From Phycisphaerales bacterium (GTDB taxonomy: Bacteria > Planctomycetota > Phycisphaerae > Phycisphaerales > UBA1924): a stretch of DNA of 64,000 nucleotides. Below, in pieces: positions 1 to 52,789 of this stretch (position 1 is the stretch's first letter; each line of letters begins with the position of its first letter). The stretch is taken from positions 2,719,638-2,783,637 of the forward strand of contig JASGKR010000001.1 in NCBI GenBank assembly GCA_047600535.1, given 5' to 3'. The translations under genes and the position numbers were made by a program. The notes under the pieces were generated by a model. It was not told the origin of the DNA. It saw only the letters and a program-made list of their open reading frames with translations, and made no database searches.

Positions 1-136
1 CTCGGCTGCTACGCTGAAGATCGTCGGCAGGTTCTGGGGGTACACACCCTTAGTGGTCACCAACCACAGGAACGCGTGGCGCGGGCGTACGAGGCGGCGC
101 ACACGCTGGCATGGCGGTTGCCACAGCGTGGGAATC

Positions 137-1126
137 ATGACTGCACGAGCACCCGCTGGCATCTCACCGCCTATCTCCCACACTGACATCCGCCGCTTTG
201 CCGAGGAGAAGGTCAACCTTCCCGCCGAGGACGCCAAAGAACGTCGTGCAAAGGTCAATGATCTGCGCGAGAAGCTGGCGAAGTGGATGAAGGATCATCC
301 CGACTGCGGCATCGCCAAGTCGTACCTGTCCGGAAGTCTTGCCAAGGGTACAGCTCTCCGTACTTCCAGCGACGTAGATGTGGCGCTGTACATCACGTAC
401 GACGGCGAACGCAAAGCGAGCCGGCAACTCTCCAACTGGATCGCCGAGCGCCTACGCAAGGCGTATCCACAGATGAGCCCGGACCAGATCGAGCCGCAGG
501 AATACTCCGTCAAGATCAAGTTCAAGGAGGCGGGTGTCGACGTGGACATCGTGCCCGTCTTCTACGAGGGTGACCCGCAGGACAAGGGCTGGCTGGTGTC
601 CAAGAAATCGGGTCGCTTGATGCTTACCAGCATCCCGATGCACCTCGCGTTTACGCGCAAGCGCAAGGACGCCCAGCCGCAGCATTTCGCTCAGGTCGTC
701 CGCCTCATCAAGTGGTGGGCTGCCGAGCAGAAAGCTAAGGACGCGAACTTCAGGTTCAAGTCGTTCATGGTCGAACTGATCTGCGCCCACCTGGCCGACA
801 ACGGGCAGGACTTCTCCGACTACCGGGCTGGTATGGAGGCGTTTTTCGACTACATCGTCTCTACAGGTCTGAAGAAGCGGATCGCATTCAAGGACAACTA
901 CCCGGTTACCGACCTGCCCGCGGCGATCACCGACCCCGTGCAAATCTTCGATCCGGTAAATGCCAAGAACAACGTCGCATCGCAGTACACCGATGAGCAT
1001 CGCCGCCTGATTGTTGAGGCCGCACAGGACGCACTCGACGCCCTGAACGAGGCTCACACAGCCGCCACGAAGCAGCACGCCGTCGAAATGTGGCGAGTCG
1101 TGCTCGGCCCTTCTTTCAGAGGATAA
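137..1126 (+). CDS. cGAS/DncV-like nucleotidyltransferase (CD-NTase), CBASS cyclase. The ORF extends to 53, and 137 is the first plausible ATG.
   Basis: Pol-beta NTase motif GSLAKGTALRTSSDVDVAL (G[GS]x...DhD) is present. A downstream acidic cluster VDVDIVP gives the third catalytic residue. Length is ~330 aa. The gene is immediately followed by HORMA-sized, TRIP13-like and NucC-like genes. Confidence 0.6.
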   Translation: MTARAPAGISPPISHTDIRRFAEEKVNLPAEDAKERRAKVNDLREKLAKWMKDHPDCGIAKSYLSGSLAKGTALRTSSDVDVALYITYDGERKASRQLSNWIAERLRKAYPQMSPDQIEPQEYSVKIKFKEAGVDVDIVPVFYEGDPQDKGWLVSKKSGRLMLTSIPMHLAFTRKRKDAQPQHFAQVVRLIKWWAAEQKAKDANFRFKSFMVELICAHLADNGQDFSDYRAGMEAFFDYIVSTGLKKRIAFKDNYPVTDLPAAITDPVQIFDPVNAKNNVASQYTDEHRRLIVEAAQDALDALNEAHTAATKQHAVEMWRVVLGPSFRG

Positions 1127-1129
1127 CAC

Positions 1130-1639
1130 ATGACGCAGAGTCACACGACAACGCAGACCTTTTCTCGCACTGACGCACGCTATATCGCCGGAAAAGTTGC
1201 CGCGGACCTTCGGCAGCTTTCTCAGGCGTACGGCGAGCCCAGCGAGGACCACATCGGCAAGCTGATGGGGGAACTCACTGAGTACCTTGCGGATGGGTAC
1301 CTCGACCGGGTCACCTATGGCTTTCGCAAAGGCGAGGAGTGGGTCATTGGGCTGAAGTACAGCGCAGCGGACATCGGCTCACTGACCTCTGATGATCGCT
1401 CGGGGCGGGTTCCGCGCGGGGTCGATCGAACTGGGGCTTCCTGGTATTCATTTCTCATTCTTAACAGCAAATGGAACGCGCTCACCGCAGAGCAGCGCAC
1501 GCAGTACGAGCGGGCATTGCCGATCCAGCGATCAAACGGCGCTGAACCCTCGGCCGGAGCACGCGGTTGGATTGAGGATAAGACATACTCGTCATCCGGT
1601 GGTGGCGTGCGGTGCGCGTCGGCTGGGGGTGCCACTTGA
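1130..1639 (+). CDS. HORMA-domain-like CBASS regulator (call made from size and position)
   Basis: A 169-aa ORF starts 4 nt after the CD-NTase stop and overlaps the downstream AAA+ gene. This size and position match HORMA in cdnC-HORMA-trip13-nucC operons. No motif was verified. Confidence 0.4.
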   Translation: MTQSHTTTQTFSRTDARYIAGKVAADLRQLSQAYGEPSEDHIGKLMGELTEYLADGYLDRVTYGFRKGEEWVIGLKYSAADIGSLTSDDRSGRVPRGVDRTGASWYSFLILNSKWNALTAEQRTQYERALPIQRSNGAEPSAGARGWIEDKTYSSSGGGVRCASAGGAT

Positions 1640-2589
1640 GCAGTGTCGATTTATTCGAGGACGTCGTAACGCTGCCGGACGCACGTGGTCAAGCCAACTA
1701 TGACCGGCTTGTAGGCTTGGACGACTACAAGGCACGGCTCGTAAAGGAGACTCTGCTCCTAGTCGATCCGAGCCAGCTGAGCGACTGGAACAAGAAGCAC
1801 CACAACGGACAGCTCGCGGCCGTCGAGTACTTCCACACCCGTCCGCCTCTATTCGTCCTTGCCGGTGACGTCGGCACCGGTAAGACGGCCTTGGCCCGCT
1901 CGTTCGGGAATCAAGTCGCCAAGCTGGCCAAGGTGCGGGTTGAGTTGTACACGCTGAGCCTCAACGCACGGGGGAGTGGGGCGGTCGGAGAGATGACGAG
2001 ACTCATATCTGGTGCATTTAGACAGGTACGCGAGGCCGTTGGCAAGACCCGCGGCAATGACGGCAAGGCTGGTCGTGGAATTATCTTGCTCATCGATGAA
2101 GCCGATGCGCTCGCCCAATCGCGCGAAGCAGCGCAAATGCACCATGAGGATCGAGCAGGGGTGAACGCACTGATTCGCGGCATCGACGACCTAGCAGCTG
2201 AAAGGCTTCCGATCGCGGTCGTCATGTGCACCAACCGCTTGGACGCAATTGACCCTGCCGTACGTCGACGCGCAGCTGCCGTGTTTGAATTCGCGCGCCC
2301 AAGTCGCGACCAGCGACTTGAGGTCATCAGGGCGGGACTCGCGGGTAGCGGCTTCTCCGAACGGGTGCTCGGCCAGGTTGCCGACGCCACCGGGGAGGCG
2401 ACCGGACGCGGCTACGGCTTCACCTACTCCGATCTGACCCAACGCCTTATCCCGACGGTTGTGCTCGACGCCTTTCCCGAGCGTGGCCTGGATGGTGCCC
2501 GCGCAATCGAGATCGCAAAAAGCCTTAAGCCGACTCCTCCCTTCCGTGAACAGGCGGTAGTGGCATCGCCCGGAGGACATCATGGCTGA
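1612..2589 (+). CDS. TRIP13/Pch2-like AAA+ ATPase of CBASS type III. The likely true start is TTG at 1636, overlapping the upstream stop.
   Basis: Walker A LAGDVGTGKTAL and Walker B ILLIDEADAL are present. Length is ~320 aa. The gene sits between the HORMA-like and nuclease genes. Confidence 0.65.
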   Translation: MRVGWGCHLSSVDLFEDVVTLPDARGQANYDRLVGLDDYKARLVKETLLLVDPSQLSDWNKKHHNGQLAAVEYFHTRPPLFVLAGDVGTGKTALARSFGNQVAKLAKVRVELYTLSLNARGSGAVGEMTRLISGAFRQVREAVGKTRGNDGKAGRGIILLIDEADALAQSREAAQMHHEDRAGVNALIRGIDDLAAERLPIAVVMCTNRLDAIDPAVRRRAAAVFEFARPSRDQRLEVIRAGLAGSGFSERVLGQVADATGEATGRGYGFTYSDLTQRLIPTVVLDAFPERGLDGARAIEIAKSLKPTPPFREQAVVASPGGHHG

Positions 2590-3331
2590 GAAGCCCACAC
2601 TAAAGCGGCTATTTCAGGGCGTCCAGAAGGAACTCGGCTCAAAGCTAGAGACCGCGCGAGAGGCTCTGGATCATCCTTCTTCGAAGGGCACAAAGACCGA
2701 AGACTACTGGATCGGGATGTTCCGTAATTATCTGCCGAAACGATACGACGTTCACCGTGCATTCGTGATCGACTCTAAGGATGTGCTCAGTGATCAGCTC
2801 GACATCGTCGTACATGACCGACAGTTCTCGCCTTTTGTGCTAAACCTCGACGGTGAATATTTTGTGCCTGCCGAAAGCGTCTACGCCGTACTCGAGGTCC
2901 GACAGACCATGAACGCGGCAAATGTGGAGTACGCGGCGGGAAAGATTGGGAGCGTTCGCAAGCTGCATCGGACGAGCCTGCCCATCCGCCACGCGGGCGG
3001 CGAGTACCCGGCCAAACCGTTGCACGACATCCTCGGAGCACTCGTCACTTTTGACAGCGACTGGACACCGCCATTTGGCGATGCCTTCCGGGCGGCAATT
3101 GCGAACGCACCGGCGATCGGTCGTCTCGACATGGGGTGCGCCGCCAAACAGGGCGGCTTTGAAGTAAAGTACGCACCGAACGAGCCTCCTGCAGTTGCAG
3201 CGGAGCGCTCCGAAGCCGCGCTTGCGCTGTTTCTGCTGCGGTTTATCGCGCGGCTCCAGTCCATGGCGACTGTCCCCGCCATGGACGTCCTGGCCTACGC
3301 CCAAGCGATCCCGAGGACCGATGTCCCCTGA
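2582..3331 (+). CDS. NucC-like restriction-endonuclease-fold effector nuclease
   Basis: The 249-aa protein has an N-terminal region HPSSKGTKTEDYWIGMFRNYLPKRYDVHRAFVIDSKDVLSDQLDIVVHDRQFSPFVLNLDGEYFVPAESVYAVLEVRQ. This closely resembles the NucC family, with a PD-(D/E)xK-like core IDx...D..LEV(R/K). The gene overlaps the AAA+ gene stop. Confidence 0.6.
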   Translation: MAEKPTLKRLFQGVQKELGSKLETAREALDHPSSKGTKTEDYWIGMFRNYLPKRYDVHRAFVIDSKDVLSDQLDIVVHDRQFSPFVLNLDGEYFVPAESVYAVLEVRQTMNAANVEYAAGKIGSVRKLHRTSLPIRHAGGEYPAKPLHDILGALVTFDSDWTPPFGDAFRAAIANAPAIGRLDMGCAAKQGGFEVKYAPNEPPAVAAERSEAALALFLLRFIARLQSMATVPAMDVLAYAQAIPRTDVP

Positions 3332-4232
3332 GAAGCGACCGATTAAACGACCGCCACCCACCACGGCCACCCTACGTCGACTCCTATTGAATTGGGAGCT
3401 TATCGATAGCGACGGCGGGCCGGGGACTAAGCCCGACAGTCGTGGGTCGTGGCACCTCTTCTGCCATCTGGCCGCCGCAGGCTCAATCCGTCGCCTCTCG
3501 AACGGCGGAGCCGCTTGGGTTGGAATTCACTATGACCGGCGGAAGGAGCTGTACGAAGCCGCCGTTTTCACCACCCTCTCGGGCCGTAGAGTGTCGTTAC
3601 CCTTTCGCTCGCGCGAGACCCACCGCCTGCTCGAAGAGAGTGAGCTCTGCGCCTATATGGAAGGAGCTTCACGCGGGCACATCCTCGACCGCTCGGCGAA
3701 CGATCCGGGCAACCCGACGAAGGACGACCGCCGCCAGGACTACGACCAGAACGTCAACTCGCCCAACGACGGCGGCCCAGTCTGGGAGATGTGGACGGTC
3801 AGCCGTGACATCCGCCCAGAGAACAAACTCGGCAGTTCGCTTGTCGAAGCCTACGCCGAGCTCCTGTCTGTGCTGGGAAGCAGGTTTGCGGCAGTCGTGG
3901 CCCGTGGGCGGATGGAGCCCGAGTACGGGCACCTCCGGCAGATGTGCGCCCTAATCGACGCCGGGTTCATCACACCGGAAGAAGCGATGACCGACATCGA
4001 GGCGGTGGCCATTCCGCCAGATGTGGAGCGGATTCTGCTTGAAGCCACGCCCGAGGCGTTTGTGACGGCCGCGGAGATGCTGGCGAAGAGGCGAAAGAAG
4101 CCGTGCTATTGGATGTACAGCCGAAAAGTCTCCAGCTTCGCCAGCGCCTCGCTGCTGCGCCGACTGGTGAAGACGCTGGGGCCCGCCGTCGCCCCCGAGC
4201 CGACTCGCAAATCACGGAATCGTCGCCACTAG
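3321..4232 (+). CDS. hypothetical protein, translationally coupled to the nucC-like gene
   Basis: The ATG at 3321 overlaps the nucC-like stop at 3329-3331, giving a ~303-aa product. No recognisable motifs were found. The gene is convergent with the downstream minus-strand genes. Confidence 0.45.
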   Translation: MSPEKRPIKRPPPTTATLRRLLLNWELIDSDGGPGTKPDSRGSWHLFCHLAAAGSIRRLSNGGAAWVGIHYDRRKELYEAAVFTTLSGRRVSLPFRSRETHRLLEESELCAYMEGASRGHILDRSANDPGNPTKDDRRQDYDQNVNSPNDGGPVWEMWTVSRDIRPENKLGSSLVEAYAELLSVLGSRFAAVVARGRMEPEYGHLRQMCALIDAGFITPEEAMTDIEAVAIPPDVERILLEATPEAFVTAAEMLAKRRKKPCYWMYSRKVSSFASASLLRRLVKTLGPAVAPEPTRKSRNRRH

Positions 4233-4937
4233 GTCCTCGACGATCCCGGCCTCAACCTCTGCAAAGCGACCTTTGCCCTTCTTACCACAGGCCGCCCCAC
4301 GGACGCAGATCACGTCCGCACCAGCCGCCCACAGCTCGGGCAACTGTTCCTTGGTGATCGAACCCGCCAGCCACGCTTCCTTTCCCTCGTCGTGCATGGC
4401 CTTGCACCACTTGGCGATCGCCTTCGTCTTGTGGTAGTCCAGGAGCCCGCGACCGATGCCTTTCTCAAACGTGTCGACAAGTACGCCGTCTGCTTTCGTC
4501 TTCACAGCCAATTTGATCGAGTCTTTGAGAGGCTTGAAGAAACGGTCCATTCCGTCGTCCACGAAGACGGCGGGGAAGAGCTTCTTTTTCGGGAACCAGT
4601 GCCGAACCGTCCGCACGATCTTTTCGCCCTGATAGATCGCTGCTTCTAAGGGCAACTCCGCAAGCCCGAACTTGATCAGATCGGCGCCAGCGATCGCGAC
4701 GCCGAGCGCCGCCTGGCATGCATTGGCCCGAGAGTGCTGGATCTCGCCGATGTTTGTCGAGATCTGGACCTTTGGGTACTTAGCTCTCACCTTCGCGCAG
4801 ACTTCCGCGATGTTGAGCGGGTAGGGCGTACCGAGGGCGGAGGCCGGGTATTCGACATCTGCGATCATCGCCCCACCTTCGGCGCAGGCGAGGGCCTCTA
4901 CTGGACCGCGAACGCTTACGAGAAGTCGCTGTTTCAT
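4212..4937 (-). CDS. MfnB/DUF556-like class-I aldolase-type TIM-barrel protein, (5-formylfuran-3-yl)methyl phosphate synthase family
   Basis: Motifs present are LLVSVRG...GGAMIADVEYP, GADLIKFGL, VLVDTFEKGIGRGLLDY, and WLAGSI...ADVICVRGAACG, which together resemble MfnB. Length is ~241 aa from MKQRLL. Confidence 0.5.
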   Translation of the reverse strand: MKQRLLVSVRGPVEALACAEGGAMIADVEYPASALGTPYPLNIAEVCAKVRAKYPKVQISTNIGEIQHSRANACQAALGVAIAGADLIKFGLAELPLEAAIYQGEKIVRTVRHWFPKKKLFPAVFVDDGMDRFFKPLKDSIKLAVKTKADGVLVDTFEKGIGRGLLDYHKTKAIAKWCKAMHDEGKEAWLAGSITKEQLPELWAAGADVICVRGAACGKKGKGRFAEVEAGIVEDLVATIP

Positions 4938-6571
4938 TTCTTTTTCTTCTTTGTGACCTTCTTTGCCGCCTTCTTGGCCTTCGCGCCTTTCTTGCGCTCG
5001 ATGTGGCAGACCCGCACGTCGAAGAATTTCGCACGTAGCGCGGCGCATCCATCGTAAAGACTAAGCCGACTGAAAAACGGCAGATCATCCGGCAGCGTCT
5101 TCGTGGGCGCATCGGCGATCGCGTAGACGATCCGTAGCTGCCGGGTTGGCACGCCCGTACTGAAGTCCTTCCACGGTGCTTTCGACTTCCACTTTGCCGG
5201 GATCTTCGCCAGGACCGCATCACGGAACGGCTGCGACCCGGCAATAAGCTGGGCCGAGTTCTCCCCCTGCTTGATGAGCGCACTGAAGGTCTGGGAGCTC
5301 TTCCACGCCTTTACATGGATGAAATGACCATCCTCCGAAACGAGATCGCAGGCCTCTACGGCATTGCCATCGGCATCGACTCCCTTACGGTCTAGTGCAC
5401 AGAACCGGTCGGGCTGCTTCTTGGCGACACCGTCGTTGTACTTGCCTTCGCCCCCGCTTCCTGTCCATGGGGGTAGGTAGTTGGGGTCGCTCTCTATGTC
5501 GATGTCGATGAAGGCGGCCTTGCAGTCGTCGATGTACTGTTGATCCAGCCGGTACCACTTCCCGTCCTTTAGCGCATACGGCTTCCCGTTGTAGTGCGTC
5601 TGAAACGTCGCGAGGTGTGACAGCGGCTGCTCAACGACAACGGACCCTTTTTCGTGAAGGCCACGGACGTTTAGTTGGTCGAGCTTGAGAGAGGCCCCGT
5701 GAGCCGCCCTCGCCCCAGCGACAATCGCTTCGACGTCTAGGTCCTCTAGCGGCTCCCATTGGTCGTCGGTCCATGAAACCTCGAAACTGTGAACAGAGCG
5801 CCAATCCTCCGCCTCCGGCAGGAAGAGGCCGATCTCTTTGCACGAAACAGGCTTGAGCGCGGCAAGCAACTTGCCGTCAAGTGCCTGCGTTACCGTTGCG
5901 TCAACGACGCGCTCGTAGCGTTTGAGGGCGGCAAGTCTTGCCTTCGGTTTCTTCGCGATTGCCGCAACAAGGCCATCGCAGAGCAATTGCAGTTCCGTAA
6001 AAGGGATGATGCCGCCGATCATGCAGGAGGTCGCGCCCGTAATTCTCTTGCCGAGCGCGGGATCGTTGCTCTTTCCACCTAGCCGGTGCACGTGGTCTCG
6101 CGCTCGCTGAAGCGGAAACGTCGCTAAGTCGCCCGGCTTGCTCGCGATCTGGAGCTTGTGAAGACCGTCGAACCCGACCGCCTTCGACTCGATCTCCTTG
6201 ATCGTGTTTGCCTCCAGCAGACGGCAAGCGGCTTCGAGTCCGAAGTCCTCCTGCACGAAAGTCTTTTCCAAAGCCATGAAGCCTTGACCGTACGTCAAAG
6301 CGCAAACTCGCCCGGATGTGGTCTTGAGAATGACGACAAGTGAGTTCGAGCGGTTGAGGACTGTCTTTGGCTTGGGGATGGCGCAATGCGGGAGGACATA
6401 CTCCAGCCAAGAGGGGACAGTGGTTTTGTCGCTTTGAAAGTACGCCGTAACGGGGAACGTCACTCCGGTGACCGCGACCTGTGTATATCCGCCCTTACCC
6501 AAGCTCGACGGTGCCATCGCATCGTCGAGGTTCTTCACCGAGTCTTTGAACACGTAGATGGTGTACTTCAT
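4934..6571 (-). CDS. hypothetical 546-aa protein with poly-lysine C-terminal tail
   Basis: A long ORF runs from MKYTIYVFKD. The C-terminus is AKAKKAAKKVTKKKKK. A possible nuclease-like D..ED..IHVK motif lies near residue 420. The 4-nt overlap with the upstream gene suggests an operon. Confidence 0.5.
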   Translation of the reverse strand: MKYTIYVFKDSVKNLDDAMAPSSLGKGGYTQVAVTGVTFPVTAYFQSDKTTVPSWLEYVLPHCAIPKPKTVLNRSNSLVVILKTTSGRVCALTYGQGFMALEKTFVQEDFGLEAACRLLEANTIKEIESKAVGFDGLHKLQIASKPGDLATFPLQRARDHVHRLGGKSNDPALGKRITGATSCMIGGIIPFTELQLLCDGLVAAIAKKPKARLAALKRYERVVDATVTQALDGKLLAALKPVSCKEIGLFLPEAEDWRSVHSFEVSWTDDQWEPLEDLDVEAIVAGARAAHGASLKLDQLNVRGLHEKGSVVVEQPLSHLATFQTHYNGKPYALKDGKWYRLDQQYIDDCKAAFIDIDIESDPNYLPPWTGSGGEGKYNDGVAKKQPDRFCALDRKGVDADGNAVEACDLVSEDGHFIHVKAWKSSQTFSALIKQGENSAQLIAGSQPFRDAVLAKIPAKWKSKAPWKDFSTGVPTRQLRIVYAIADAPTKTLPDDLPFFSRLSLYDGCAALRAKFFDVRVCHIERKKGAKAKKAAKKVTKKKKK

Positions 6572-6680
6572 GGGGTGCTGCCTTGAATACATTCCGAACC
6601 TACGACTGGGAGCAGGCCGGCCGTGACCGCACAACACTAAACCTTGCCGCGGCCGATTGCTTCACAAAACGCAAAACTAT

Positions 6681-7508
6681 CTAGTCGGCCTTTTTAATGA
6701 CGCGCCGCACCCACTGCTCTAGCTCGCGACCCTCATATTTCCCCAAACGAAATTGCCGCTGTTGTACGTAGCGGTTCGCGGGGTCGCTGAGATAGCTCGT
6801 GGTAATCATCAAGCCCTTGGTCGCGCCAAAGTCGTCACGAGCCGCGGATAGCTCTCTCACCTTATCGAGGCTGACCGCACGTGTCGGACCATATTTCTTG
6901 GCTTGCCAAACACTCTTGACTGCACCGAGAATTCGGTCGTTTCGCACACCCACGACATCAATTCCGTCATCGCCTCCTTCTTTTGTGATTTGAACTTTAA
7001 AACCATCTTCCTCGAGAAGTTGTCCGATGAGTTCCTCAAACTGACGCCATGAGAGTGCGTGCAAGCTACGCCCAGCGAGAAGGTGATCTCGAGCCAGTCG
7101 AAGTACGCTCGGCGCAAGGCCGATCCACATCGGGATTTTTGGCGGCGCGACGAGGCCGGTATCGGGCTTCCACAACTTGGGCCTGCCGAGAGGGCGTACT
7201 TCCAGGATGGACTCTTTTGGCCTCCCGAGCTGCAGTAGCCACGATCGAATTTGAGCCAATAAGAGATCTGGGGAAGCCTCCCGTTTTCGTTCGACTTCTG
7301 CTTGTCCCCGGAAATCCCAGACGTTGACGTCGAAGTCACCGGACATCGACCGTAGTGCATTGAATAGATGACCGATGGCTTCGGGGCGCTGCTTTCTACT
7401 GAACCCCTCCACAAATTTCACCAGACCACCGTCCACCGATTTCGGGCTGCGTGCCGTGCGGGCTGTTTCGATGAGTGATACGGCTCTCTTGGCGACTTCC
7501 TGACGCAT
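6681..7508 (-). CDS. Mrr-cat (type IV restriction endonuclease N-terminal-like) domain protein
   Basis: The C-terminal half is WRQFEELIGQLLEEDGFKVQITKEGGDDGIDVVG...VWQAKKYG...KGLMITTSYLS. This fits the Mrr_cat PD-(D/E)xK fold with DG.D...Q.K. Confidence 0.55.
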   Translation of the reverse strand: MRQEVAKRAVSLIETARTARSPKSVDGGLVKFVEGFSRKQRPEAIGHLFNALRSMSGDFDVNVWDFRGQAEVERKREASPDLLLAQIRSWLLQLGRPKESILEVRPLGRPKLWKPDTGLVAPPKIPMWIGLAPSVLRLARDHLLAGRSLHALSWRQFEELIGQLLEEDGFKVQITKEGGDDGIDVVGVRNDRILGAVKSVWQAKKYGPTRAVSLDKVRELSAARDDFGATKGLMITTSYLSDPANRYVQQRQFRLGKYEGRELEQWVRRVIKKAD

Positions 7509-8561
7509 ACACACCTCGATTCAAGGCCAGCCCTGACAATCTACGACGGAAGCTTAAGATCTACTGACCTCGGATAGATTTAGTTGCGAGCATTTTACTG
7601 GGGCGTGCCGCTTACCTGGGAGCCTGGGACCGTTAATGGCGAAGCGGTCGAACCGGCCGATCAGTGGGCGCGTGACTTTAACCGAGCCACCGCACCGGCG
7701 GCTCAGCGAGGGTCGGTGCGGCATCAAGGCAGTGCTTCTGGGGAAAGGACTCGCTGCGGGCGACCGCTCACTGGTAGCTTGAAGCACGGGTTTCTTTCTG
7801 CACGTTCCGCGCTTGCACTCTGCAAGATTTGGTGTAGGCTCATTGGCAGTAACGGCCCACCCACTTCAGCCAGGAGCCTCGACTGCGGGCTTCTTTGAAG
7901 GGCCAGCGAAACCGGACTCGGAACCGGGAAAGAGTGATCCGAGCGGCAAAGGGGCAGCCAGACCCGCCGAATGAACTGTGACTGGCCCGCCAGCGAGCGG
8001 AACACGCGCAAATCGGAGGCATTGGTGTCGAGCATTCGGGCGCGTGCCCGGGCACCTTGTCGTCTTTGTCCGTTTCGCTCGGAACGGGCGTGGTGAACGC
8101 TCTGCGGGGTACGCCTCCGCCTGCCAGACGTTCCGGTGTGTCTTCGCGCGTTGAAGGCCGAAGACTCGTTGGAGCGTGCGATGCGAATTCCGAATTGGAT
8201 AGTGAGCCTGCTGAGTGTGGAGTGTGAAGCGTGCCGCACGACATCAAATGGGACACGGGTACGAACACGACTGAGGGTCGGGCCGTTCCCGATCATGGCG
8301 TGCTGCCTCGCCCTGTATCTGGTGGCCAAGACCATCGTGAAAGCGTGCGCGGATGCGTCTCTGCCTTAACGGGGGCGGGCGGGGCCCTCCCCGCCATCGC
8401 ATTGGCTCCTGCCCGAATAACCCCCACTCCCTGACGGTCGGGGCTCGTGATAAGGAAGGATGCACCCGTGAACGGATATCCGGAATAAACGGAACGGCTG
8501 CCGGAACCCCCGCCTCCCGCGCTGAAGTTGCGCCTTTGGGTAAACGAAGACGCTTCGGCGT

Positions 8562-8688
8562 AGTCGTGAGTGCTGAGTCCTGAGTCTCGAGTGAAGCCCT
8601 GAGTTCGGAGTCGTGAGTAGCAAGACTCCCCACCCCCCTCCCCCCCTTCCTTCCCCCACTCAGCACTCACGACTCAGCACTCAGGACT
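8562..8688. repeat. Imperfect long inverted repeat: ~8 tandem NNTGAGT units, a C-rich spacer (ccccacccccctcccccccttccttccccc), then ~4 ACTCAGN units
   Basis: Seen directly in the sequence. agtcgtgagtgctgagt at 8562-8578 is perfectly complementary to actcagcactcacgact at 8658-8674. The repeated 7-nt units allow several pairing registers. The element lies ~60 nt upstream of the 8747 ORF. Confidence 0.6.
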
Positions 8689-8746
8689 CTTCGTTCCTCT
8701 GCTCAACACTTCCCGTTTCTCCTCAACTTCCAGAAAGGACTCTCCC

Positions 8747-9439
8747 ATGCCCGTTCTCCCCAGCACGAAGCTCGGCCGCATCGAGTGGTGCGAGGCTCGC
8801 ATCGCCGCGTGGACCGCCGCGCCGACCACCATCGGCCTCACACTCGCCGAGGTCACGGCGCTCGGCGCCCAGATCAAGGATGCTCGTCAGGCCTACGACG
8901 CCGCCATCAAGGCGAAGAACACCGCCAAGGACTCGACCGTCACCAGCGACAACGAGGCCTCGACGATGACGACCCTCGCCGCCAACGCCATCAAGCACAT
9001 CAAGGCGTACGCCGCCAGCTCGGCCAATCCGGATGCGGTGTACGCCGCGGCCTCGGTCCCGCCGCCCGCCGCGCCCGGCCCCACGCCGCCCCCCGGCCAG
9101 CCGACCAATTTTACGTTCGACCTCGACACCAACACCGGCGGCCTGGTCGTGCACTGGAAGTGCACCAACCCCGCGGGCGTCAGCGGCGTGGTCTACACCG
9201 TCCGCCGCGCGATCGGCGCTGCGCCCGCAACCACGGTCGGCGTCACCGGCGAGAAGAAGTTCAGCGACACGACGATCCCCGCCGGCTCGTCGAGCATCAC
9301 GTATCAAGTCTTCGGCCAGCGCGGCAGCCAGATCGGCCCCGCCAGCAACCCGGTGACGGTGCGCTTCGGCTCCGGAGGCGCGATGCAGGTCTTTGAAGAG
9401 ACCGCGGACACGAGCGCCAACGTGAAGCTGGCGGCGTGA
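8747..9439 (+). CDS. hypothetical secreted protein with fibronectin-III-like region
   Basis: The ORF is 230 aa. A PAAPGPTPPPGQP linker is followed by a beta-rich region TNFTFDLDTNTGGLVVHWKCTNPAGVSGVVYTVRR. AGGA lies upstream of the ATG. Confidence 0.5.
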   Translation: MPVLPSTKLGRIEWCEARIAAWTAAPTTIGLTLAEVTALGAQIKDARQAYDAAIKAKNTAKDSTVTSDNEASTMTTLAANAIKHIKAYAASSANPDAVYAAASVPPPAAPGPTPPPGQPTNFTFDLDTNTGGLVVHWKCTNPAGVSGVVYTVRRAIGAAPATTVGVTGEKKFSDTTIPAGSSSITYQVFGQRGSQIGPASNPVTVRFGSGGAMQVFEETADTSANVKLAA

Positions 9440-9512
9440 GAGGTGGAGTCGCGAGTCTCTTGTCGCAAGTCGCGGGACGAAGTCCGACTGGCAAGTCTGT
9501 GAATGTGATCAA

Positions 9513-9554
9513 GGCCCCGGCGTACTGCCCGGGCCTTTTCATTTCTGCTTTTCG
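9513..9554 (+). terminator. rho-independent terminator
   Basis: The hairpin ggccccggcg-tact-gcccgggcc is followed by ttttcatttctgcttttcg. It lies 75 nt after the 8747-9439 ORF. Confidence 0.55.
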
Positions 9555-9564
9555 CATCTCGTTT

Positions 9565-9800
9565 GACGAGGCCCATGCGCAAGCTTTGGCTCGGTGTGCG
9601 GCGGAATGTGAGAACATAGAGAATCGAAACGCCGTTGCGCGAACGACCGCGCAGCCCAGGCTCGCGCCAGGGCCTCGTTAAAGCGACGACGCCCATGCGC
9701 AAGCTTGGGCTCGGTGTGCGATGGACTGTCGGGCACCGCGAGTGTTGCGGCGTCGTTGCGCAGACGACGCGCAGCCAAGGCTCGTTTTTCGGGCCTTAGA
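9565..9800. repeat. ~120-bp imperfect tandem duplication (2 copies)
   Basis: gacgaggcccatgcgcaagctttggctcggtgtgcg at 9565 matches gacgacgcccatgcgcaagcttgggctcggtgtgcg at 9685. Both copies also share a ...cgttgcgcRRacgacgcgcagccMaggctcg tail. The repeat lies between convergent genes. Confidence 0.55.
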
Positions 9801-11028
9801 ACGAGAAGTTGGTGTTCGGATCCGTCGCGGTCGGGCCTCCCGCGGGCAGGTAGCTGCCGCCGGAGATCGGGACGGGGTTGAGCGTCATCGGAACGATCGG
9901 GGCGACGGCGTTGTTGACGCCGATCACGTAGTTCGCCCCCGTGTTACCGCCGGCCGTGTGGCGGCCGACCCAGTTGAGCGTCCCGGTGATGTCGACGCCG
10001 CGGACGTTGCCGGTGGTGTGATTGCCCTCCAGGCGGTTGCGGGAGCCAGTGATCATGATCCCGCCGCCGGGGTTGGATGCGCCTGCGAGATTGTTGGTGC
10101 AGGTGTTATTCAGCAGCTCGCACTGGTTGACGGCCGCGATCCCGAAGTTCTGGTTGCCGAGCGCGGAGCAGCCGTGGATCGCGCTGCCGGTGAGGGCGGA
10201 GATCCCCCCGCCGGTGTTGGCCGTCGCCGTGCAGGCGCGGATGAGGAGGGCGTTGTTGGCGAAGATGCCGGCGCCGGTGTTGTTGTTCGACGTGCAATCA
10301 ATGACCTGCGATCCGGTGCCGACGGAGATGCCGATGCCGGCGTTGGTCGCCGCGCTGCAGGATTGGACGACGCCGGACGTGACCGTGACGATCCCGACTC
10401 CGCCGTTATTGCGGGCGACGCAGTTGCGGATGACCGCAAAGTCGCGCACCGAGATGCCGTCGGTCGTGTTGCCGTCGACCGTGCAGTCCTCGATAGTCAC
10501 GCGGTCGCCGCCCCTGATGCCGGCACTGTTGGCGATGAAGCGAACGTTGCGAATCGTCGCCATCTGGGGCGCCCCGACGGAGATGTTGATCCCGATGCTG
10601 CCGCACTGCGTCACAGTGCCGTTGAGAATCGTGATGTTGGACTGGCCGTCGAGGTACATGCGGATGCCCGTGCCCGGACCGCTGCCGCTTCCGCGGACCA
10701 TGAAGCCGTTGAGGTCGATGGTCACGTTGCTGGCGCCGATGGCGATGCCGGTCGTGTTCGCCCCTTGCACGACGTCGGCTTCGAGGTAGTAGCTTCCCGG
10801 AGCGGTGATCTCGAAGGTGCCGAACACCCCGCCGGGAGTGTTGGTGCTGTTGATGGCGATGCGCGGCTCAGTCTTGGCGATCTTGTTGTAAAGCTCCTGT
10901 GTCGTCTTGCCGGTCGGCGCGACCGCGCCGGCGGGAGGATCAAGCGGACCGAAGGCGCTGGCTGTGGCGGCGGCGACGAGGGAGGAGGCGAGTGCGACGA
11001 TAAGGCAGCGGCTGGAAGGAATGGTCAT
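9796..11028 (-). CDS. secreted right-handed parallel beta-helix repeat protein, paralog A, with Sec-type signal
   Basis: The signal peptide is MTIPSSRCLIVALASSLVAAATASA. The conserved family N-module is GPLDPPAGAVAPTGKTTQELYNKI...PRIAINSTNTPGG...APGSYYLEADV...IDLNGFMVRGSG. This is followed by many beta-helix rungs (NxxxGIxxxxS). Confidence 0.65.
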   Translation of the reverse strand: MTIPSSRCLIVALASSLVAAATASAFGPLDPPAGAVAPTGKTTQELYNKIAKTEPRIAINSTNTPGGVFGTFEITAPGSYYLEADVVQGANTTGIAIGASNVTIDLNGFMVRGSGSGPGTGIRMYLDGQSNITILNGTVTQCGSIGINISVGAPQMATIRNVRFIANSAGIRGGDRVTIEDCTVDGNTTDGISVRDFAVIRNCVARNNGGVGIVTVTSGVVQSCSAATNAGIGISVGTGSQVIDCTSNNNTGAGIFANNALLIRACTATANTGGGISALTGSAIHGCSALGNQNFGIAAVNQCELLNNTCTNNLAGASNPGGGIMITGSRNRLEGNHTTGNVRGVDITGTLNWVGRHTAGGNTGANYVIGVNNAVAPIVPMTLNPVPISGGSYLPAGGPTATDPNTNFSF

Positions 11029-11706
11029 GGCGAGAGCGTACCGGCGGTCACCTGCTACGCGGGTGCGGCGCGCGAAATTCCGCACGATTGCCTACTTCGC
11101 TGCGGGGTTGCAGTGGCGCTCCGCACGAGGCCCAAAGGCAAGCCTGGACTTTTAGCACGCTAAGCAGCTCGCCCGTGCCTTCTCCCCTTTCGCTACGCCT
11201 TCGGATTGAAAACACGGAGCTCAAAGAGAACACGGAGAAAGGCATGGGTACGGCCGCTGCCACCCCGCCCTTGCTTCCTCCACCCTACACCCCACACTAA
11301 CCGCCATTCTCAACGAACTCCACTCCGGTCTTCTCGCACGCTGCACAAGTTTCTCGCTACCACTCATGCGCTCTGCCGTTCTTTTCTCTCTATGTTTTTC
11401 TCCGTGCTCTCCGTGAGCTCCGTGTTTCACCGACTTTCCAAACAAGCCCTCGTAGCCGCCAAGCGTGCCGGGGTTTTCAAGCCGGCACCAGATTGCGCAG
11501 CTTGCCTAGTTACTAGGTGAGTTCCCCCAACTCAAGAGCTTCGTCAACCTTCGAGTCATGCACGATCTACAAAATCCCCGAATCGCGGGGCTTGCAACTG
11601 CATTCATTATCTGTATTGTGTGTGCGTCGGATGAACACCGCCGGTGTGGGCGGCCCGACATACACGCGAGCCCGTCGAGAGACGTGGCCAAAGAGGAGAG
11701 AGAGTC

Positions 11707-12518
11707 ATGAACAAGCTGACCGCTGTCGCCGTTGTTGCTATCGCCGCGCTCGCGAGCGCCGCTTCTGCCAACATCGTTTATACCACAGGTAATTACGAGC
11801 AGAACTTCAACTCGCTTGCGCTCAGCGGCACCAACCAGTCGTGGACCAACGACAGCACGATCAGCGGCTGGTTCCTCTACCGCGCGCCGCGATCTCGCCT
11901 TTCGCAATTACCACGTACAACGCCGCGCCCGGCTCTAACACCACCGGCAGCTTCTATAGCTTCGGCGCGGCTTCCAGCAACGAACGTGCGTTCGGCGCCA
12001 TCGGCTCCGGCGGCACCTACTACGGCTCACAAGCCAATGGCGCAGTGTGCGGCTGGATCGCCGTCAGCCTCACCAACGGCACCGCCGACACACTCACCGA
12101 TGTGACGATCGGCTTCGACGGCGAGCAGTGGCGCGACGGCGGCTCGAGCGGCGTCACGCCCGCAGCGCAAACGATGGTTCTCGAGTACGGCTTCGGCGCA
12201 ACCTTCGGCGCGGTGACCGCCTGGACTGCGCCGGGCGGGGCGTTCAACTGGAGCTCGCCCGTCATCACCAACACGGGCGGCGGCGCGATGGTCGACGGCA
12301 ACGACGCGGGCCGCGTCGCCGGCCGCGGCGGCACGATCAGCAACCTGGCGTGGGAGCCGGGCCAGACGATGTGGGTCCGCTGGGTCGAAGTGAACGACGC
12401 GGGCAACGACCACGGACTGGCGATCGACAACTTCTCGTTCTCGGCCACGCCCACGCCGGGTGCGGCCGCCGTGCTCAGCTTCGGCATGCTCGCCGCGACG
12501 CGCCGCCGTCGCGCTTGA
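11707..12518 (+). CDS. secreted protein with PTPGA...RRRR (PEP-CTERM-like) C-terminal sorting signal. It is interrupted by a frameshift near 11885.
   Basis: The signal peptide is MNKLTAVAVVAIAALASAASA. The C-terminus is ATPTPGAAAVLSFGMLAATRRRRA. Two overlapping ORFs (11644-12105 and 11841-12518) join with a 1-nt shift at WFLYRA|AAISPF. Confidence 0.5.
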
Positions 12519-16750: not shown

Positions 16751-16879
16751 GCGGAAGAGTCCAAAGGGTCGAGGAATCAAGGCATCGAGAAGATGCCGTC
16801 TCCTTCGCCCTTCCTTCCCCACTCTTTTCTTCTTGACCCCGCGGTCCCTCGATTCCTCGATCCCTTCCCCGAGCTCACC

Positions 16880-33020: not shown

Positions 33021-33059
33021 TGCGGGCTGTTTGAGTCGGTAAGTGATCGAAGGGGGGAC

Positions 33060-33116
33060 GCGGCGGGTAAGGCTCACGAGGGGGTGAGCCCACTACCCGC
33101 CGCTTTCCTTTTCTCC
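33060..33116. terminator. nested-hairpin bidirectional terminator between convergent genes
   Basis: The outer stem gcggcgggta/tacccgccgc encloses the inner stem ggctcac-gaggggg-gtgagcc. tttccttttctcc follows. Confidence 0.6.
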
Positions 33117-33155
33117 TCTTCCTTCGATTGACCGCCCCAGCGAAGCAATGGCTTT

Positions 33156-33197
33156 CCGACTTCCGACTTCCGACTTCCGACTTCCGACTTCCGACTC
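33156..33197. repeat. heptanucleotide microsatellite (ccgactt)x5 plus ccgactc
   Basis: Seen directly in the sequence. The repeat abuts the stop codon of the corrected 33196-34262 gene. Confidence 0.85.
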
Positions 33198-34262
33198 AAT
33201 TCTCCCCACACCCATCAAAGAACCCGGTGATGAACGCGATGAAATCGTTGTTGTCGAGCTGACCGTCCGAGCCCGGCTGACCTCCCGCGCGCCCACGTCC
33301 GCCCGGGTGTCGGCAGCGAAGTACCGGTTGATGTACGCGATGAAGTCGTTGTTGTCGAGCGCACTGTCCGCGCCGTCGACGCCGCCCGCACTCCCCACGT
33401 CGCTCGGCCCGCAGGGGATGTAGATCGTCCGCCCCAGCCAGCGGTTGTTCACGATCCCCATCGACGGGCTGTTGATCGTGTACCCCTCAGGCAGCACGAA
33501 GACCAGCGGCTCACCGAAGCTCGGCCCGTTGGTCGCGATGCTCGCGTTCATGTGCCAGCTCGCCCCGCCCGGCGAGTGGTCATACGCGCCGCCGAACGCG
33601 ACGCCCGACGGATTCCGCGGCGTGCCGAGCGACATCGAAACGGTAAACGGCTGGTTCACCGGAACCAGCGCGCCGACGATGCTGACGGTTCCGCTGGTCG
33701 ATGACGGCGGGTTCCCGCCGCCGATGTGCGCCGAGAACGACCCGCCCTGACCGGCAATCGAGGCGCTCGCGTTGATCGTGTACCCCGCGGAGATGACGTT
33801 CTCGCCCGATGCACCGACGATCCCAATCACGCTGAACGACGCCGACACGGGAATCGTGTTCTCAAACTGCCCCGTCCCCGTGTACGAGATCACCACGTCG
33901 CTCCACGAAGCGCTCGACGTGCCCGACCCCGCCCACGTCACGCCGTCATACCGACCCGGGAGACTCGCAATCGCATGGCGGGATCCGGCGCCGTTGGCGG
34001 AGTGCTCAATCAGCCCACGGTCGACCGACGACATGAACGACTCGTGCGCCGCGCTCCCGTTCGCCGAGACCGAACCGCACGTCGAGATCCCCAGCATCGG
34101 AAACTGGCTTGTCCGGTTATCGCCGTGGAACGTCTGCGTCCCGCCTCCGTAGAAGACGGCCGCTCCGATGTTCGTCGAGTACGTCCCCTGCGCAAACGCC
34201 GCCGCTCCAGACCCCGCCACGCCCAGCCCCCCTACCACGGCCGCCAACATCGTCGCTCGCAT
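33196..34262 (-). pseudogene. secreted protein with duplicated DNNDFIA(Y/F)I dockerin-like C-terminal module ending FFDGC. A single-nt frameshift between the two repeats makes it a pseudogene or assembly error.
   Basis: The signal peptide is MRATMLAAVVGGLGVAGSGAAAFAQG. The first repeat is GSAGGVDGADSALDNNDFIAYINRYF. Shifting +1 near 33265 restores AGGQPGSDGQLDNNDFIAFITGFFDGCGEN-stop. The annotated ORF 33093-34493 reads through into junk. Confidence 0.5.
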
Positions 34263-40785: not shown

Positions 40786-40842
40786 CCTCAATTTGGCCAT
40801 TTAGCCATTTAGCCATTTAGCCATTTAGCCATTTGCCATTTG
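40786..40842. repeat. octanucleotide microsatellite (agccattt) of about 6 units
   Basis: ttggccatttagccatttagccatttagccatttagccatttgccatttggccattt lies between convergent genes. Confidence 0.85.
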
Positions 40843-44849: not shown

Positions 44850-45018
44850 GGTAAGCTCCTAGCGGCAGTTTACTTATTTGCCGCACACCTTTTAGGACGA
44901 TTTGTTCCGGCAAGCCGGCGGGGGAAGCACCGCCCAACCCTTTCCACTCCCCGTGCCGCCGCGCCGGCCGCTCTGGGACGGTCGGTGCTGCCTTCATGCT
45001 CGCGATTTAGACTATCCA

Positions 45019-45594: not shown

Positions 45595-45693
45595 TGCCTT
45601 AAAGGGGGCAGTCGGGGCCCTCCCCGACACTGCATCGCGCATTTCGCCTGCGATTTCCAAGTACACTCCGCCTGCACAAACCCCGCCGAGTCC

Positions 45694-45768
45694 CAAGGCG
45701 CAGCGCAGCCTCAGTAGCGCGTCTGGTTCGGGACCAGAAGGTCGGAGGTTCAAATCCTCCCACCCTGG
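45694..45768 (+). pseudogene. degenerate tRNA-Pro(CGG)-like element
   Basis: The anticodon arm is tctgg-TTCGGGA-ccaga and the T arm is ggagg-TTCAAAT-cctcc. A D arm gcgc/gcgc is present but the D loop lacks GG and U8 is absent. The acceptor stems pair at only 5 of 7 positions. Confidence 0.3.
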
Positions 45769-45838
45769 CTGCAGCGCAACCACACAGCGCGTTTGACTGG
45801 GGATCAAAAGGTCGTGGGTTCAAATCCCGCCACCACGA
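45765..45838 (+). pseudogene. degenerate tRNA-Pro(GGG)-like element, tandem to the previous one
   Basis: The anticodon arm is tttga-CTGGGGA-tcaaa. The variable loop is aggtc. The T arm is gtggg-TTCAAAT-cccgc. The acceptor pairs at 4 of 7 positions. The architecture is the same as the neighbouring element. Confidence 0.3.
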
Positions 45839-52691: not shown

Positions 52692-52789
52692 AGAGGCACC
52701 GGAGTGCCACACCACATGGCGTGAGCGAGAGTGCTCCCCTCCCCACCCCCCACCCCCCACGCTCCCCGCTCCCCGCTCCCCACCGCGAC

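Follow-up and report, generated by a model that had tools for sequence, protein, structure and literature searches.

Heptamers have been described as the most abundant class of long SSRs (Mrazek 2007, as cited in PMC4679880 and PMC4692102), and intergenic heptamer repeats, including inverted pairs, are already documented (PMC4692102). In Xanthomonas, 70–75 convergent inverted heptamer pairs are found, and the G-rich heptamer repeats of Xanthomonas and Nostoc have been studied as G-quadruplex (G4) formers (PMC4692102). The 5′-UTR of H. influenzae hmw1A contains a heptamer-repeat hairpin which is cleaved by RNase III; this transcribed hairpin controls both expression and its own variability (PMC12721329). 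For a further group, the TAACTGA repeats, translational or RNA-binding-protein roles have been proposed (MacGregor 2015, PMC4679880).

We analyzed a 64-kb stretch of DNA (hereafter the window) from the 4.38-Mb genome of a Phycisphaerales MAG, in which the gene-free region 7515–8746 lies between a variable defense island and a core gene. The hairpin at the end of this region is a member of the widespread heptameric repeats of intergenic DNA, many of which are arranged in convergent pairs capable of stem-loop formation. It combines the features by which heptameric intergenic SSRs are recognized: a 7-nt tandem period above chance, a noncoding site, and a convergent inverted pair.

Like the heptamer SSRs of Xanthomonas (convergent GGGAATC pairs) and Nostoc (GGGGA(T/C)T repeats; Rehm et al. 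2015, PMC4692102), the hairpin is built from a 7-nt unit in degenerate, intergenic NNN-core arrays of about four units, and its two convergent arrays could form a stem-loop or a cruciform. In both cases, sequence and length are not conserved between related species. On the other hand, it differs from these SSRs in its unit (GAGTNNT, which is not G-rich), in its G4/i-motif-capable tract, which lies in the loop and not in the repeats, in its Phycisphaerales host, and in its location, which is not directly behind an ORF but 5′ of a gene, between divergently oriented neighbors.

The hairpin also resembles the (ATCTTTC)n hairpin of hmw1A (Rapun-Araiz et al. 2025, PMC12721329) in that a heptamer repeat is located between a promoter (putative in our case) and the start codon, and in that the predicted hairpin is long and imperfect, leaves the ribosome-binding site uncovered, and has a G/C-rich tract on one side. 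However, at hmw1A the perfect units, 11 or more in number, pair with a G-rich arm that is not a repeat, and the locus is hypervariable, whereas the arms of the window hairpin are short degenerate arrays. With the TAACTGA direct repeats of marine Beggiatoaceae, Cyanobacteria, and Bacteroidetes (MacGregor 2015, PMC4679880) and the cyanobacterial STRR heptamers, it shares a stop-codon-containing heptamer, a patchy cross-phylum spread, and an intergenic location close to start codons. Unlike the TAACTGA direct arrays, which lie over the ribosome-binding site (PMC4679880), it is an inverted pair located 58 nt from the start, with a separate Shine–Dalgarno-like AAGGA. Finally, it is an imperfect extragenic palindrome, as are REP/BIME elements and bidirectional intrinsic terminators, and TGAGT-type hairpins of other genomes resemble these elements in lying between convergent genes with A-rich/T-rich flanks. 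Unlike these elements, the window hairpin has no repeated unique sequence family in the window, a 63-nt loop, no U-run, and no adjoining gene 3′ end. A literature search for its repeat sequence itself returned primers and unrelated sequences only.

The Region between the Defense Island and the Core Gene

The defense island contains a type III CBASS, a TIGR04141 protein, and a Mrr-like nuclease (Pfam, PADLOC). The last of its genes (6681–7514, minus strand) encodes this Mrr-like restriction endonuclease (Pfam Mrr_cat, 2.8e-23; PADLOC PDC-S02 and type IV mREase models) and is divergent from the region 7515–8746. The core gene on the other side (8747–9439, plus strand, GC3 0.92; hereafter gene 8747) encodes a protein that is 100% identical to QM783_13160 of a Phycisphaerales MAG. 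In its structure model, a Pro-rich linker separates a long helical hairpin at the N terminus from an FN3 domain at the C terminus, and no Pfam, NCBIfam, or PADLOC family matched it. The original prediction regarded this product as secreted, but it has neither a recognizable signal peptide nor a known surface role. A Shine–Dalgarno-like AAGGA is present at 8735–8739 (plus strand), 7 nt 5′ of the ATG, and is left free by the predicted fold of the hairpin.

The region itself is noncoding, in agreement with the earlier impression that it holds no credible ORF. Codon-position GC periodicity was not observed (max–min 0.02–0.18, compared with 0.28–0.47 in the downstream gene). No Pfam matches were detected for the eight longest ORFs or, at E ≤ 1, in the six whole-frame translations. 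The longest ORF (203 aa, 7724–8335, minus strand) has no homolog among 5.8 billion proteins, in which it is itself unrecorded. A hidden gene or pseudogene was rejected on the basis of the GC frame plot, the Pfam searches of ORFs and six frames, and the search with this ORF. In addition, a full HMMER scan dismissed a 77-aa ORF (8136–8369) as a gene: its sole matches, to a repeated CxxCH-type motif of a protein with multihaem-like repeats and to a junk repeat protein, are repeat-motif artifacts. The residual GC periodicity of 0.13–0.18 at 7750–8110 and 8200–8470 could represent a decayed gene.

Most of the region is a spacer of about 850 nt (7515–8361), which is noncoding, unstructured, and unconserved according to codon periodicity, Pfam, homology, folding, and blastn. 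Its folding z-scores range from −2.6 to +2.2, and blastn found no match to orthologous loci, plasmids, or phages. Similarity of the region to mobile DNA was also rejected, as no plasmid or phage matched in blastn, and outside the hairpin no homolog was found in any collection searched. The promoter of the Mrr-like gene must be located in the first ~100 nt of the spacer, which may be made up of long-decayed gene remnants. In the whole region, a sigma-70-like match occurs only at 7533–7560 and a terminator call only at 7812–7826; the terminator scan gave nothing at the hairpin. Sliding z-scores were unremarkable on both strands except at the hairpin, which is the only part of the region with excess folding, and a structured RNA of 1 kb was therefore rejected.

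A REP-like GC-rich hairpin motif (GCCTTAAC GGGGGCGGGCGGGG CCCT CCCCGCC ATCGCA) was identified at 8362–8402 (plus strand) by blastn and direct reading. It shows 84% identity over 49 nt to 45587–45635 of the window (blastn), and its kin lie directly after stop codons, both in the window (45596–45637) and in the related locus L005 (about 9190–9240 and about 9400–9520). We also considered a paralogous cassette, with 7682–7722 and 8355–8402 collinear with the flanks of gene 45019–45594; it was rejected because nothing similar was found between these flanks (blastn, tblastx, BLASTP). The core motif common to the cassette-like matches, GRSGGTCGGKGC, shows no enrichment in the window (11 occurrences, 9 expected).

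Architecture and Folding of the Terminal Hairpin

In the MFE structure, the whole stem-loop spans 8543–8696 (plus strand), with ACGAAGA/TCTTCGT as its outer stem and CGCTTCGGCG as a small side hairpin. Its arms (8562–8593 and 8657–8688) are 32 nt long and 84% complementary, with a perfect 17-bp core formed by AGTCGTGAGTGCTGAGT (8562–8578) and ACTCAGCACTCACGACT (8658–8674). Alternative pairing registers exist at shifts of 7 and 14 nt. The 5′ arm is part of a series of degenerate heptamers at 8562–8618 (AGTCGTG AGTGCTG AGTCCTG AGTCTCG AGTGAAG ... AGTTCGG AGTCGTG AGT; TRF and sequence) and has TGA in all three frames within 15 nt; the 3′ arm consists of complementary heptamers at 8657–8689 (CACTCAG CACTCAC GACTCAG CACTCAG GACTC). 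TRF detected period 7 in both arms (3.6 and 4.7 copies, 80–83% match) and, in the 3′ arm, also period 14 (2.3 copies, 94% match). The three-unit pattern GAGTNNTGAGTNNTGAGT has eight matches in the window, seven of which are within the hairpin, compared with 0.15 in shuffled sequences. At most two perfect units occur in tandem, and the C runs reach 6 and 7 nt. Thus, the perfect pairing, the slipped 7-nt registers, and the C-rich loop of the original prediction were all confirmed, as was the distance to gene 8747, which had been given as ~60 nt and was measured as 58 nt between the hairpin 3′ end and the ATG at 8747.

The loop of 63 nt contains a C-rich, G-free tract of 30 nt, CCCCACCCCCCTCCCCCCCTTCCTTCCCCC (8628–8657), the minus strand of which reads as a canonical G4 motif; directly 5′ of this tract is an inner 6-bp hairpin, GGAGTC-11 nt-GACTCC (8607–8629, MFE structure). 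Tracts of this kind in the window comprise 14 of the C-type on the plus strand and 3 of the G-type, and CT-rich tracts are also asymmetric (8 vs. 0); this follows an overall surplus of C over G on the coding strand (22477 vs. 18594). C-rich tracts were observed both after stop codons and before start codons. The idea that a hairpin with a C-rich tail is the terminator of this genome was rejected, as the folding energy just 5′ of 12 C-rich tracts was not below that of random windows. Intrinsic terminators are characterized by a GC-rich stem, a loop of 3–8 nt, and a U-run directly after the stem, whereas this hairpin has a much longer loop and a tail, CTTCGTTCCTC, without a U-run.

Folding z-scores at the hairpin are about −5 to −6. 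The RNA fold of 8540–8710 has a predicted energy of −65.5 kcal/mol (z = −6.0), with 0 of 200 shuffles equally stable, and the DNA fold of the minus strand has a z-score of −4.9. If transcribed, the hairpin would form a very stable RNA stem-loop, and it may have a local cis-acting RNA role. A scan of 7400–8850 against Rfam 15 gave no match at gathering threshold and no tRNA-like match. At E ≤ 10, only chance-level matches to mir-674 and mir-769 (18 bits, compared with thresholds of 93 and 57) and to a viral pseudoknot (E = 0.45) were obtained, and a known ncRNA was rejected on the basis of both searches. The riboregulator proposed originally is also disfavored by the lack of excess folding elsewhere in the region and by the absence of the hairpin from the three closest orthologous loci. 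For eight loci of other genomes that contain such hairpins, Rfam likewise returned sub-threshold miRNA-precursor matches only, to the hairpins themselves.

Orthologous Loci and the Native Upstream Region

The three closest orthologous loci, at 82, 75, and 67% protein identity, lack the hairpin, and it is absent in L127, L005/L006, and L001–L004; they carry instead a common leader block, GGTGCGATACCCCGTG-37 nt-GGCTCAAGC. This block is absent from the whole window and has no match in the metagenome collection. Its three sequences show no net covariation (term +0.79) that would indicate a wider RNA motif. Upstream regions of more distant orthologs are unrelated. Because the relatives without the hairpin carry a different conserved block at the same position, the hairpin is a lineage-specific replacement of that block, which places the replacement of a conserved leader by a heptamer hairpin within about 18% protein divergence. 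A riboswitch-like leader would be conserved upstream of orthologous genes, and the hairpin is conserved there in neither sequence nor structure. Essentially, the region is variable DNA that is not conserved in related genomes, an outcome which the original prediction had named as speaking against it. A metagenome scan with protein alignment yielded no further relatives, and an exact-protein look-up of gene 8747 yielded no same-species sequence.

Three-way alignment and direct reading revealed collinear anchors at 8424–8492 (plus strand): CCACTCCC (8424–8431), GATAA (8449–8453), and CGGAATAAACGG (8481–8492), the last of which is a 12-mer identical in L001. The anchors are short (8, 5, and 12 nt) and lie upstream of the hairpin. 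They suggest that 8424–8492 is the native upstream region of gene 8747, possibly including its promoter. As the anchors start about 130 nt upstream of the hairpin, the latter is likely to be inside this native upstream region rather than at the edge of the island. In 1–12000, att-like direct repeats were not detected, and no direct repeat of ≥16 nt is shared between 8400–8750 and 1–7500, the far end of the island being located before the window start. Given the anchors and the missing att-like repeat, the suggestion that the hairpin is a boundary scar of the defense island is not supported.

The ortholog of gene 8747 is preceded by other defense genes in L001–L004 (RM, GmrSD, RE_Eco29kI) and by NERD and an HTH gene in L005. 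Because island content differs between the window and the orthologous loci of its relatives, the locus is a variable defense-gene site. This site upstream of the helical + FN3 gene, with different defense genes in the window and two related lineages, could help the mapping of defense hotspots in Planctomycetota.

At the 3′ end of gene 8747 (9440–9545, plus strand), four-way alignment revealed a degenerate heptamer array (AGTCGCG AGTCTCT ...), whose units are of the GAGTC-type family also present in the 5′ hairpin; downstream of the array is an intrinsic terminator that the relatives have conserved. The orthologous 3′-end arrays keep their period and place and differ in unit sequence and length between relatives; in L127 and L006, heptamer arrays are present on both sides of the terminator. 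Considering that the 3′ arrays change their unit and that the leader was replaced over a short evolutionary distance, the two observations suggest fast, concerted turnover rather than a sequence-specific function.

Heptamer Hairpins in Other Genomes

A genome scan for arrays of four TGAGTNN units identified at least 120 loci in Cyanobacteria, Acidobacteriota, Bacteroidota, Chloroflexota, Planctomycetota, and other groups. Seventeen of these at least 120 loci are of the inverted hairpin type; all 17 are intergenic and have the stop codon of a flanking ORF within 15 nt, and seven are located between convergent ORFs. Among the other tandem arrays in the TGAGTNN loci, period 7 predominates (n = 98, compared with 4–19 each for periods 5, 6, 8, and 9). 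Just 10 of these 98 arrays carry the TGAGT core. TGAGT was therefore rejected as a special core, and its apparent ubiquity is largely a product of the search pattern. Selection of heptamer units for stop codons was likewise rejected (76 observed, 70.2 ± 3.8 expected, P = 0.08).

Possible Origin and Function of the Hairpin

In our opinion, the hairpin is probably an inverted pair of degenerate GAGTNNT/ANNACTC heptamer SSR arrays around a C-rich loop, derived by slippage and transcribed in the 5′ leader of gene 8747, and the region 7515–8746 is, as part of the same reading, junction DNA between a variable phage-defense island and a core gene. Such arrays would arise and stay homogeneous by replication slippage or local duplication. 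The hairpin would be transcribed within a 5′ leader of roughly 250 nt, and the leader RNA would fold into a stem of about 32 bp with the ribosome-binding site free. This stem might be a double-stranded RNA target for RNase III; alternatively, the hairpin might be a roadblock to transcription running in from the side of the changeable island, or an insulator from it. Equally, selection may have given it little or no function. Several points count against this reading: TGAGT-type hairpins elsewhere are found at gene 3′ ends, and no intact gene ends at the window hairpin; the sole sigma-70-like match of the region is that at 7533–7560; the anchors are short; and the residual GC periodicity could mean a decayed gene.

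Those 3′-end hairpins raise the question of whether the element is an orphan terminator or insulator, either left by a plus-strand gene lost in island turnover or kept against island read-through (transcription and translation) into the core gene. The stop codons next to all 17 inverted hairpins and the seven convergent cases are in line with this idea, and many such hairpins are flanked by ...AAGAAG / CTTCTT... (A-rich 5′, T-rich 3′), comparable to ACGAAGA / TCTTCGT of the window element. TGA is present in all three frames on both strands of the hairpin, L005 has a plus-strand gene directly upstream, and the L127 and L006 arrays flank an intrinsic terminator at the 3′ end of the ortholog. However, the hairpin does not adjoin the end of any plus-strand gene, and the neighboring island gene is divergent; the end of a lost gene would more likely be at the REP-like motif (8362–8402), which in L005 and at 45.6 kb contains the stop codon or comes after it. 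Considering also the silent terminator scan, the long loop without a U-run, the ordinary stability of hairpins directly 5′ of C-rich tracts, and the absence of stop-codon enrichment in the units, we regard an orphan terminator as unlikely. A broader proposal, rather improbable, is that inverted TGAGTNN hairpins are a selected cross-phylum class of RNA gene boundaries (RNase III or termination modules closing all frames), one of which replaced a leader RNA here and controls the FN3 gene beside a defense hotspot in a hmw1A-like manner.

The original prediction also suggested a phase-variable promoter element. In a related form, changes in heptamer number or C runs would alter leader structure or spacing and switch gene 8747, as at hmw1A, whose transcribed heptamer hairpin is a precedent (PMC12721329). 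The heptamer arrays and C6/C7 runs do sit between conserved upstream motifs and the start codon, and the arrays at the 3′ end of the gene vary in sequence and length among relatives. Phase variation is nevertheless unlikely because at most two perfect units are found in tandem, compared with at least 11 in hmw1A; the units match by 80–83% only, the C runs are short, and neither a signal peptide nor a surface role has been recognized for the protein. The promoter version is weak for the same degeneracy and, in addition, the hairpin lies downstream of the motifs conserved with relatives and not in an obvious promoter spacer. We thus consider such a contingency switch very unlikely. A DNA-level element is just as hard to credit: a template-strand i-motif or G4, extruded by the flanking cruciform, would modulate transcription of gene 8747. 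The canonical minus-strand motif at 8628–8657, the tract asymmetry (14 vs. 3, and 8 vs. 0 for CT-rich tracts), the stable DNA fold, and the G4 studies in Xanthomonas and Nostoc (PMC4692102) are consistent with it, but the asymmetry tracks the C excess and the tracts occur after stops as well as before starts. Most unlikely is a miniature mobile element (MITE- or REP-like) in the leader with the 32-nt arms as terminal inverted repeats. Inverted-repeat termini do surround a short noncoding core (about 127 bp), and the GAGTC-type unit recurs at the 3′ end of gene 8747, at 49887–49904 of the window, and in the sister species contig L006. On the other hand, no second copy of the element is present in the 64-kb window, the flanks show no target-site duplication but prolong the palindrome, the relatives have a replaced block and not an empty site, and the arms are tandem repeats instead of unique termini.

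If the heptamer SSR reading holds, a candidate ncRNA or att site can be removed from the annotation, and a striking hairpin beside a defense island would be an ordinary simple-repeat structure. The locus adds two data points to the question of why the intergenic DNA of bacteria is so rich in heptamer repeats and what role these have. Further 7- to 9-nt repeat arrays and repeat-armed hairpins were also observed in the window, at 11210–11427, 16763–16866, 33040–33200, 40791–40838, and 52700–52800.

Genomic Context of the Junction Region

The region at 7515–8746 lies beside a defence island that sits upstream of gene 8747 (8747–9439, plus strand). This island contains a complete type III CBASS operon at 53–3331, which encodes a cyclase (53–1126), HORMA (1130–1639), TRIP13 (1612–2589), and a NucC-type effector endonuclease (2582–3331), as well as a TIGR04141/DUF6119 protein (4934–6637, minus strand) and, as the last island gene, an Mrr-like nuclease (6681–7514, minus strand). 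GC content is 0.55–0.62 up to ~8700 and 0.65–0.71 past that point. The upstream island and this shift indicate that the region is an intergenic space whose flanking genes diverge: the last one of the island on one side, the first host-like one on the other. An ORF at 4212–5048 (minus strand), which overlaps the TIGR04141 gene by ~115 nt, matches 4-HFC-P synthase (PF04476, 1e-38), an odd companion for defence genes.

The product of gene 8747 is 100% identical to QM783_13160 (Phycisphaerales MAG, 4.38-Mb contig) and belongs to a family of 38 members, none of which is annotated. Its structural model consists of a long helical hairpin, a Pro-rich linker, and an FN3 domain (pLDDT 87). No signal peptide was evident, and the label "secreted" in the original prediction is unsupported.

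The lack of a credible ORF in the region was borne out by several analyses. The codon-position GC difference was 0.02–0.18 within the region versus 0.28–0.47 in gene 8747, and neither its ORFs nor the six whole-frame translations matched Pfam. For a 203-aa ORF, neither a homologue nor a record of the ORF itself was found among 5.8 billion proteins, and the only matches of a 77-aa ORF that ends in a REP-like motif were to a Cys-rich motif that recurs in a multihaem-like protein. The Rfam scan suggested originally gave no indication of a known ncRNA: No family reached threshold for the 1.2-kb region, and a relaxed scan produced nothing beyond chance-level matches to miRNA precursors and a viral pseudoknot. 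Sliding-window folding of both strands revealed nothing remarkable anywhere in the region outside the terminal hairpin, and plasmids and phages showed no similarity to it. The region is unconserved junction DNA.

The REP-like motif, GCCTT(A/G)AA(A/C)GGGGGC-AGTCGGGG-loop-CCCCGAC-CTGCATCG, is common to two species; its copies (8362–8402 and 45596–45637 in the window, ~9190–9240 and ~9400–9520 in L005, an orthologous locus) lie on or directly after stop codons. A second short match, 7682–7722 to 44951–44991, is collinear with it; the cassette-like look of this pair collapsed when tested.

A Hairpin Built from Heptamer Repeats

The hairpin at 8562–8689, which has conserved motifs upstream of it and the ribosome-binding site of gene 8747 downstream, matches its original description exactly. 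Its arms (8562–8593 and 8657–8688, 32 nt each) are 84% complementary, include a perfect 17-bp core (8562–8578 with 8658–8674), and allow additional pairing registers shifted by 7 and 14 nt; both have a period of 7 according to TRF. RNA folding of 8540–8710 gave −65.5 kcal/mol (z = −6.0), a stability that none of 200 shuffles reached. The hairpin does not pair with the AAGGA at 8735–8739. As DNA, the other strand gave z = −4.9. The three-unit GAGT pattern has eight matches in the window, seven of which are in the hairpin, versus 0.15 expected.

Using a scan for four consecutive TGAGTNN units, with one genome per species, we detected at least 120 loci; the matches listed came from Cyanobacteria, Acidobacteriota, Bacteroidota, Chloroflexota, Planctomycetota, Gemmatimonadota, Proteobacteria, and other phyla. 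Among them, 17 loci have a complementary array within ~250 nt, which makes them hairpins of the same type; several have GC/CC spacers identical to those of the window hairpin. All 17 are intergenic, each with the stop codon of a flanking ORF no more than 15 nt away (usually 1–14 nt ahead of the array), and in seven cases the flanking ORFs are convergent. None of them falls under a bacterial Rfam family. In 0.87 Mb of these listed loci, 98 other tandem arrays had period 7, versus 6, 19, 16, and 4 for periods 5, 6, 8, and 9, respectively. Their units are highly diverse, and only 10 of the 98 contain a TGAGT core, indicating that TGAGT is one heptamer of many and that its seeming ubiquity owes partly to the search pattern.

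These findings agree with the literature. Heptanucleotide repeats are described as the commonest class of long simple repeat in many bacterial genomes, with polymerase slippage as a possible cause (Mrazek 2007, as cited in PMC4679880 and PMC4692102). Xanthomonas has 70–75 convergent inverted GGGAATC pairs, mostly directly after an ORF, whose length is not conserved between sister species (PMC4692102). The hairpin is an inverted arrangement of intergenic heptameric repeats, a known but functionally uncharacterised class. Such repeats are found in chaperone-gene leaders too: A TGAGT-heptamer hairpin in a Pyrinomonadaceae locus (L060, ~7560–7641) stops ~10 nt short of the dnaK start codon, and heptamer arrays in an Anaerohalosphaeraceae locus (L010, ~6995–7020) lie ~80 nt ahead of groEL.

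Probable Lineage-Specific Replacement and Possible Function

We compared the three closest orthologous loci of gene 8747: L127 (82% identity), L005/L006 (75%), and L001–L004 (67%). In L001–L004 the orthologue is preceded by a methyltransferase, an Eco29kI-like nuclease, GmrSD, and an FRG-domain gene, and in L005 by a NERD gene and an HTH gene; thus, the site upstream of gene 8747 carries defence genes that differ from lineage to lineage. The hairpin is absent from all three relatives. Their orthologues share a leader block (L127 1–174; L005 ~9828–10000; L001 ~9868–10000) composed of GGTGCGATACCCCGTG, an interval of exactly 37 nt that holds one variable hairpin, GGCTCAAGC, another variable hairpin, and the ribosome-binding site. 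This block could be a small cis-regulatory RNA; covariation gave no net signal from three sequences. The GGTGCGATACCCCGTG-37 nt-GGCTCAAGC arrangement occurs nowhere in the window, even with up to three mismatches allowed, nor in the metagenome collection. Upstream regions of more distant orthologues (41–45% identity) are unrelated, several having their own tandem repeats.

Further upstream than the expected position of the leader block, the window has short anchors collinear with those of L001 and L005: CCACTCCC (8424–8431) and GATAA (8449–8453), together with a 12-mer, CGGAATAAACGG (8481–8492), identical in L001. From these sequence comparisons, the simplest reading is that the native upstream region of gene 8747 would start by ~8424, that the junction on the island side lies near the REP-like motif, and that, in this lineage alone, the hairpin has come to replace the conserved leader segment and does not mark the island's boundary. 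The proposal of a boundary scar is at odds with these anchors upstream of the hairpin, and no att-like direct repeat was found within 1–12000.

The hairpin is a stable, lineage-specific inverted heptamer array. It would be transcribed within the leader of gene 8747, where its near-continuous ~32-bp duplex would suit RNase III well as a substrate; the heptamer hairpin of Haemophilus influenzae hmw1A offers an experimentally studied precedent (PMC12721329). Alternatively, it might block transcription coming in from the island contents, and it may well be neutral. The originally suggested phase variation is unlikely because the arrays consist of degenerate units and hold no more than two perfect copies, compared with 11 or more in hmw1A (PMC12721329). 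The observation of a hairpin in a gene-free region was confirmed, and its interpretation was only partly supported. The hairpin adds a member to a known repeat class and lies within unconserved junction DNA.

Other Short-Repeat Elements

Repeat-armed hairpins with CT-rich loops also occur at 11210–11427 (9-nt units), 33040–33200 ((TTCCGAC)x6, 7-nt units), and 52700–52800 ((GCTCCCC)x3, 7-nt units), all intergenic, and at 16763–16866 (8-nt units), where a stop codon precedes the hairpin and the next ATG follows it. An octamer array, (CATTTAGC)x5, at 40791–40838 resembles a TTTGGCCC array at 4130–4165 of L001. CT-rich tracts (eight on the plus strand, none on the minus strand) are all intergenic, some ~45 nt past stop codons and others 30–150 nt ahead of start codons. 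G-quadruplex motifs are likewise biased (14 C-type versus 3 G-type), and both biases reflect the general excess of C on the coding strand. The ideas that hairpins are more stable directly before C-rich tracts and that heptamer units are enriched in stop codons both failed, with no significant difference and no enrichment, respectively.

Between the convergent genes 8747–9439 and 9796–11085, two tandem ~120-nt units (9560–9790) share a 45-nt core with 89% identity, each folding as a long GC-rich hairpin in a BIME-like arrangement. At 45694–45830, a tRNA-Pro(CGG) is followed after 4 nt by a partial tRNA-like sequence (Rfam 37.9 bits, model positions 9–63; no ARAGORN call) and then a C-rich tract; this arrangement may be what is left of an integration site.

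At the 3' end of gene 8747, a heptamer array follows the stop codon and precedes a conserved intrinsic terminator in all four lineages. The unit is AGTCGCG-type in the window, TGAGTCS in L006, and ATNGCAA/CATTTGC in L127. The sequence of these arrays turns over while period and position stay, which is what slippage-driven concerted evolution predicts.
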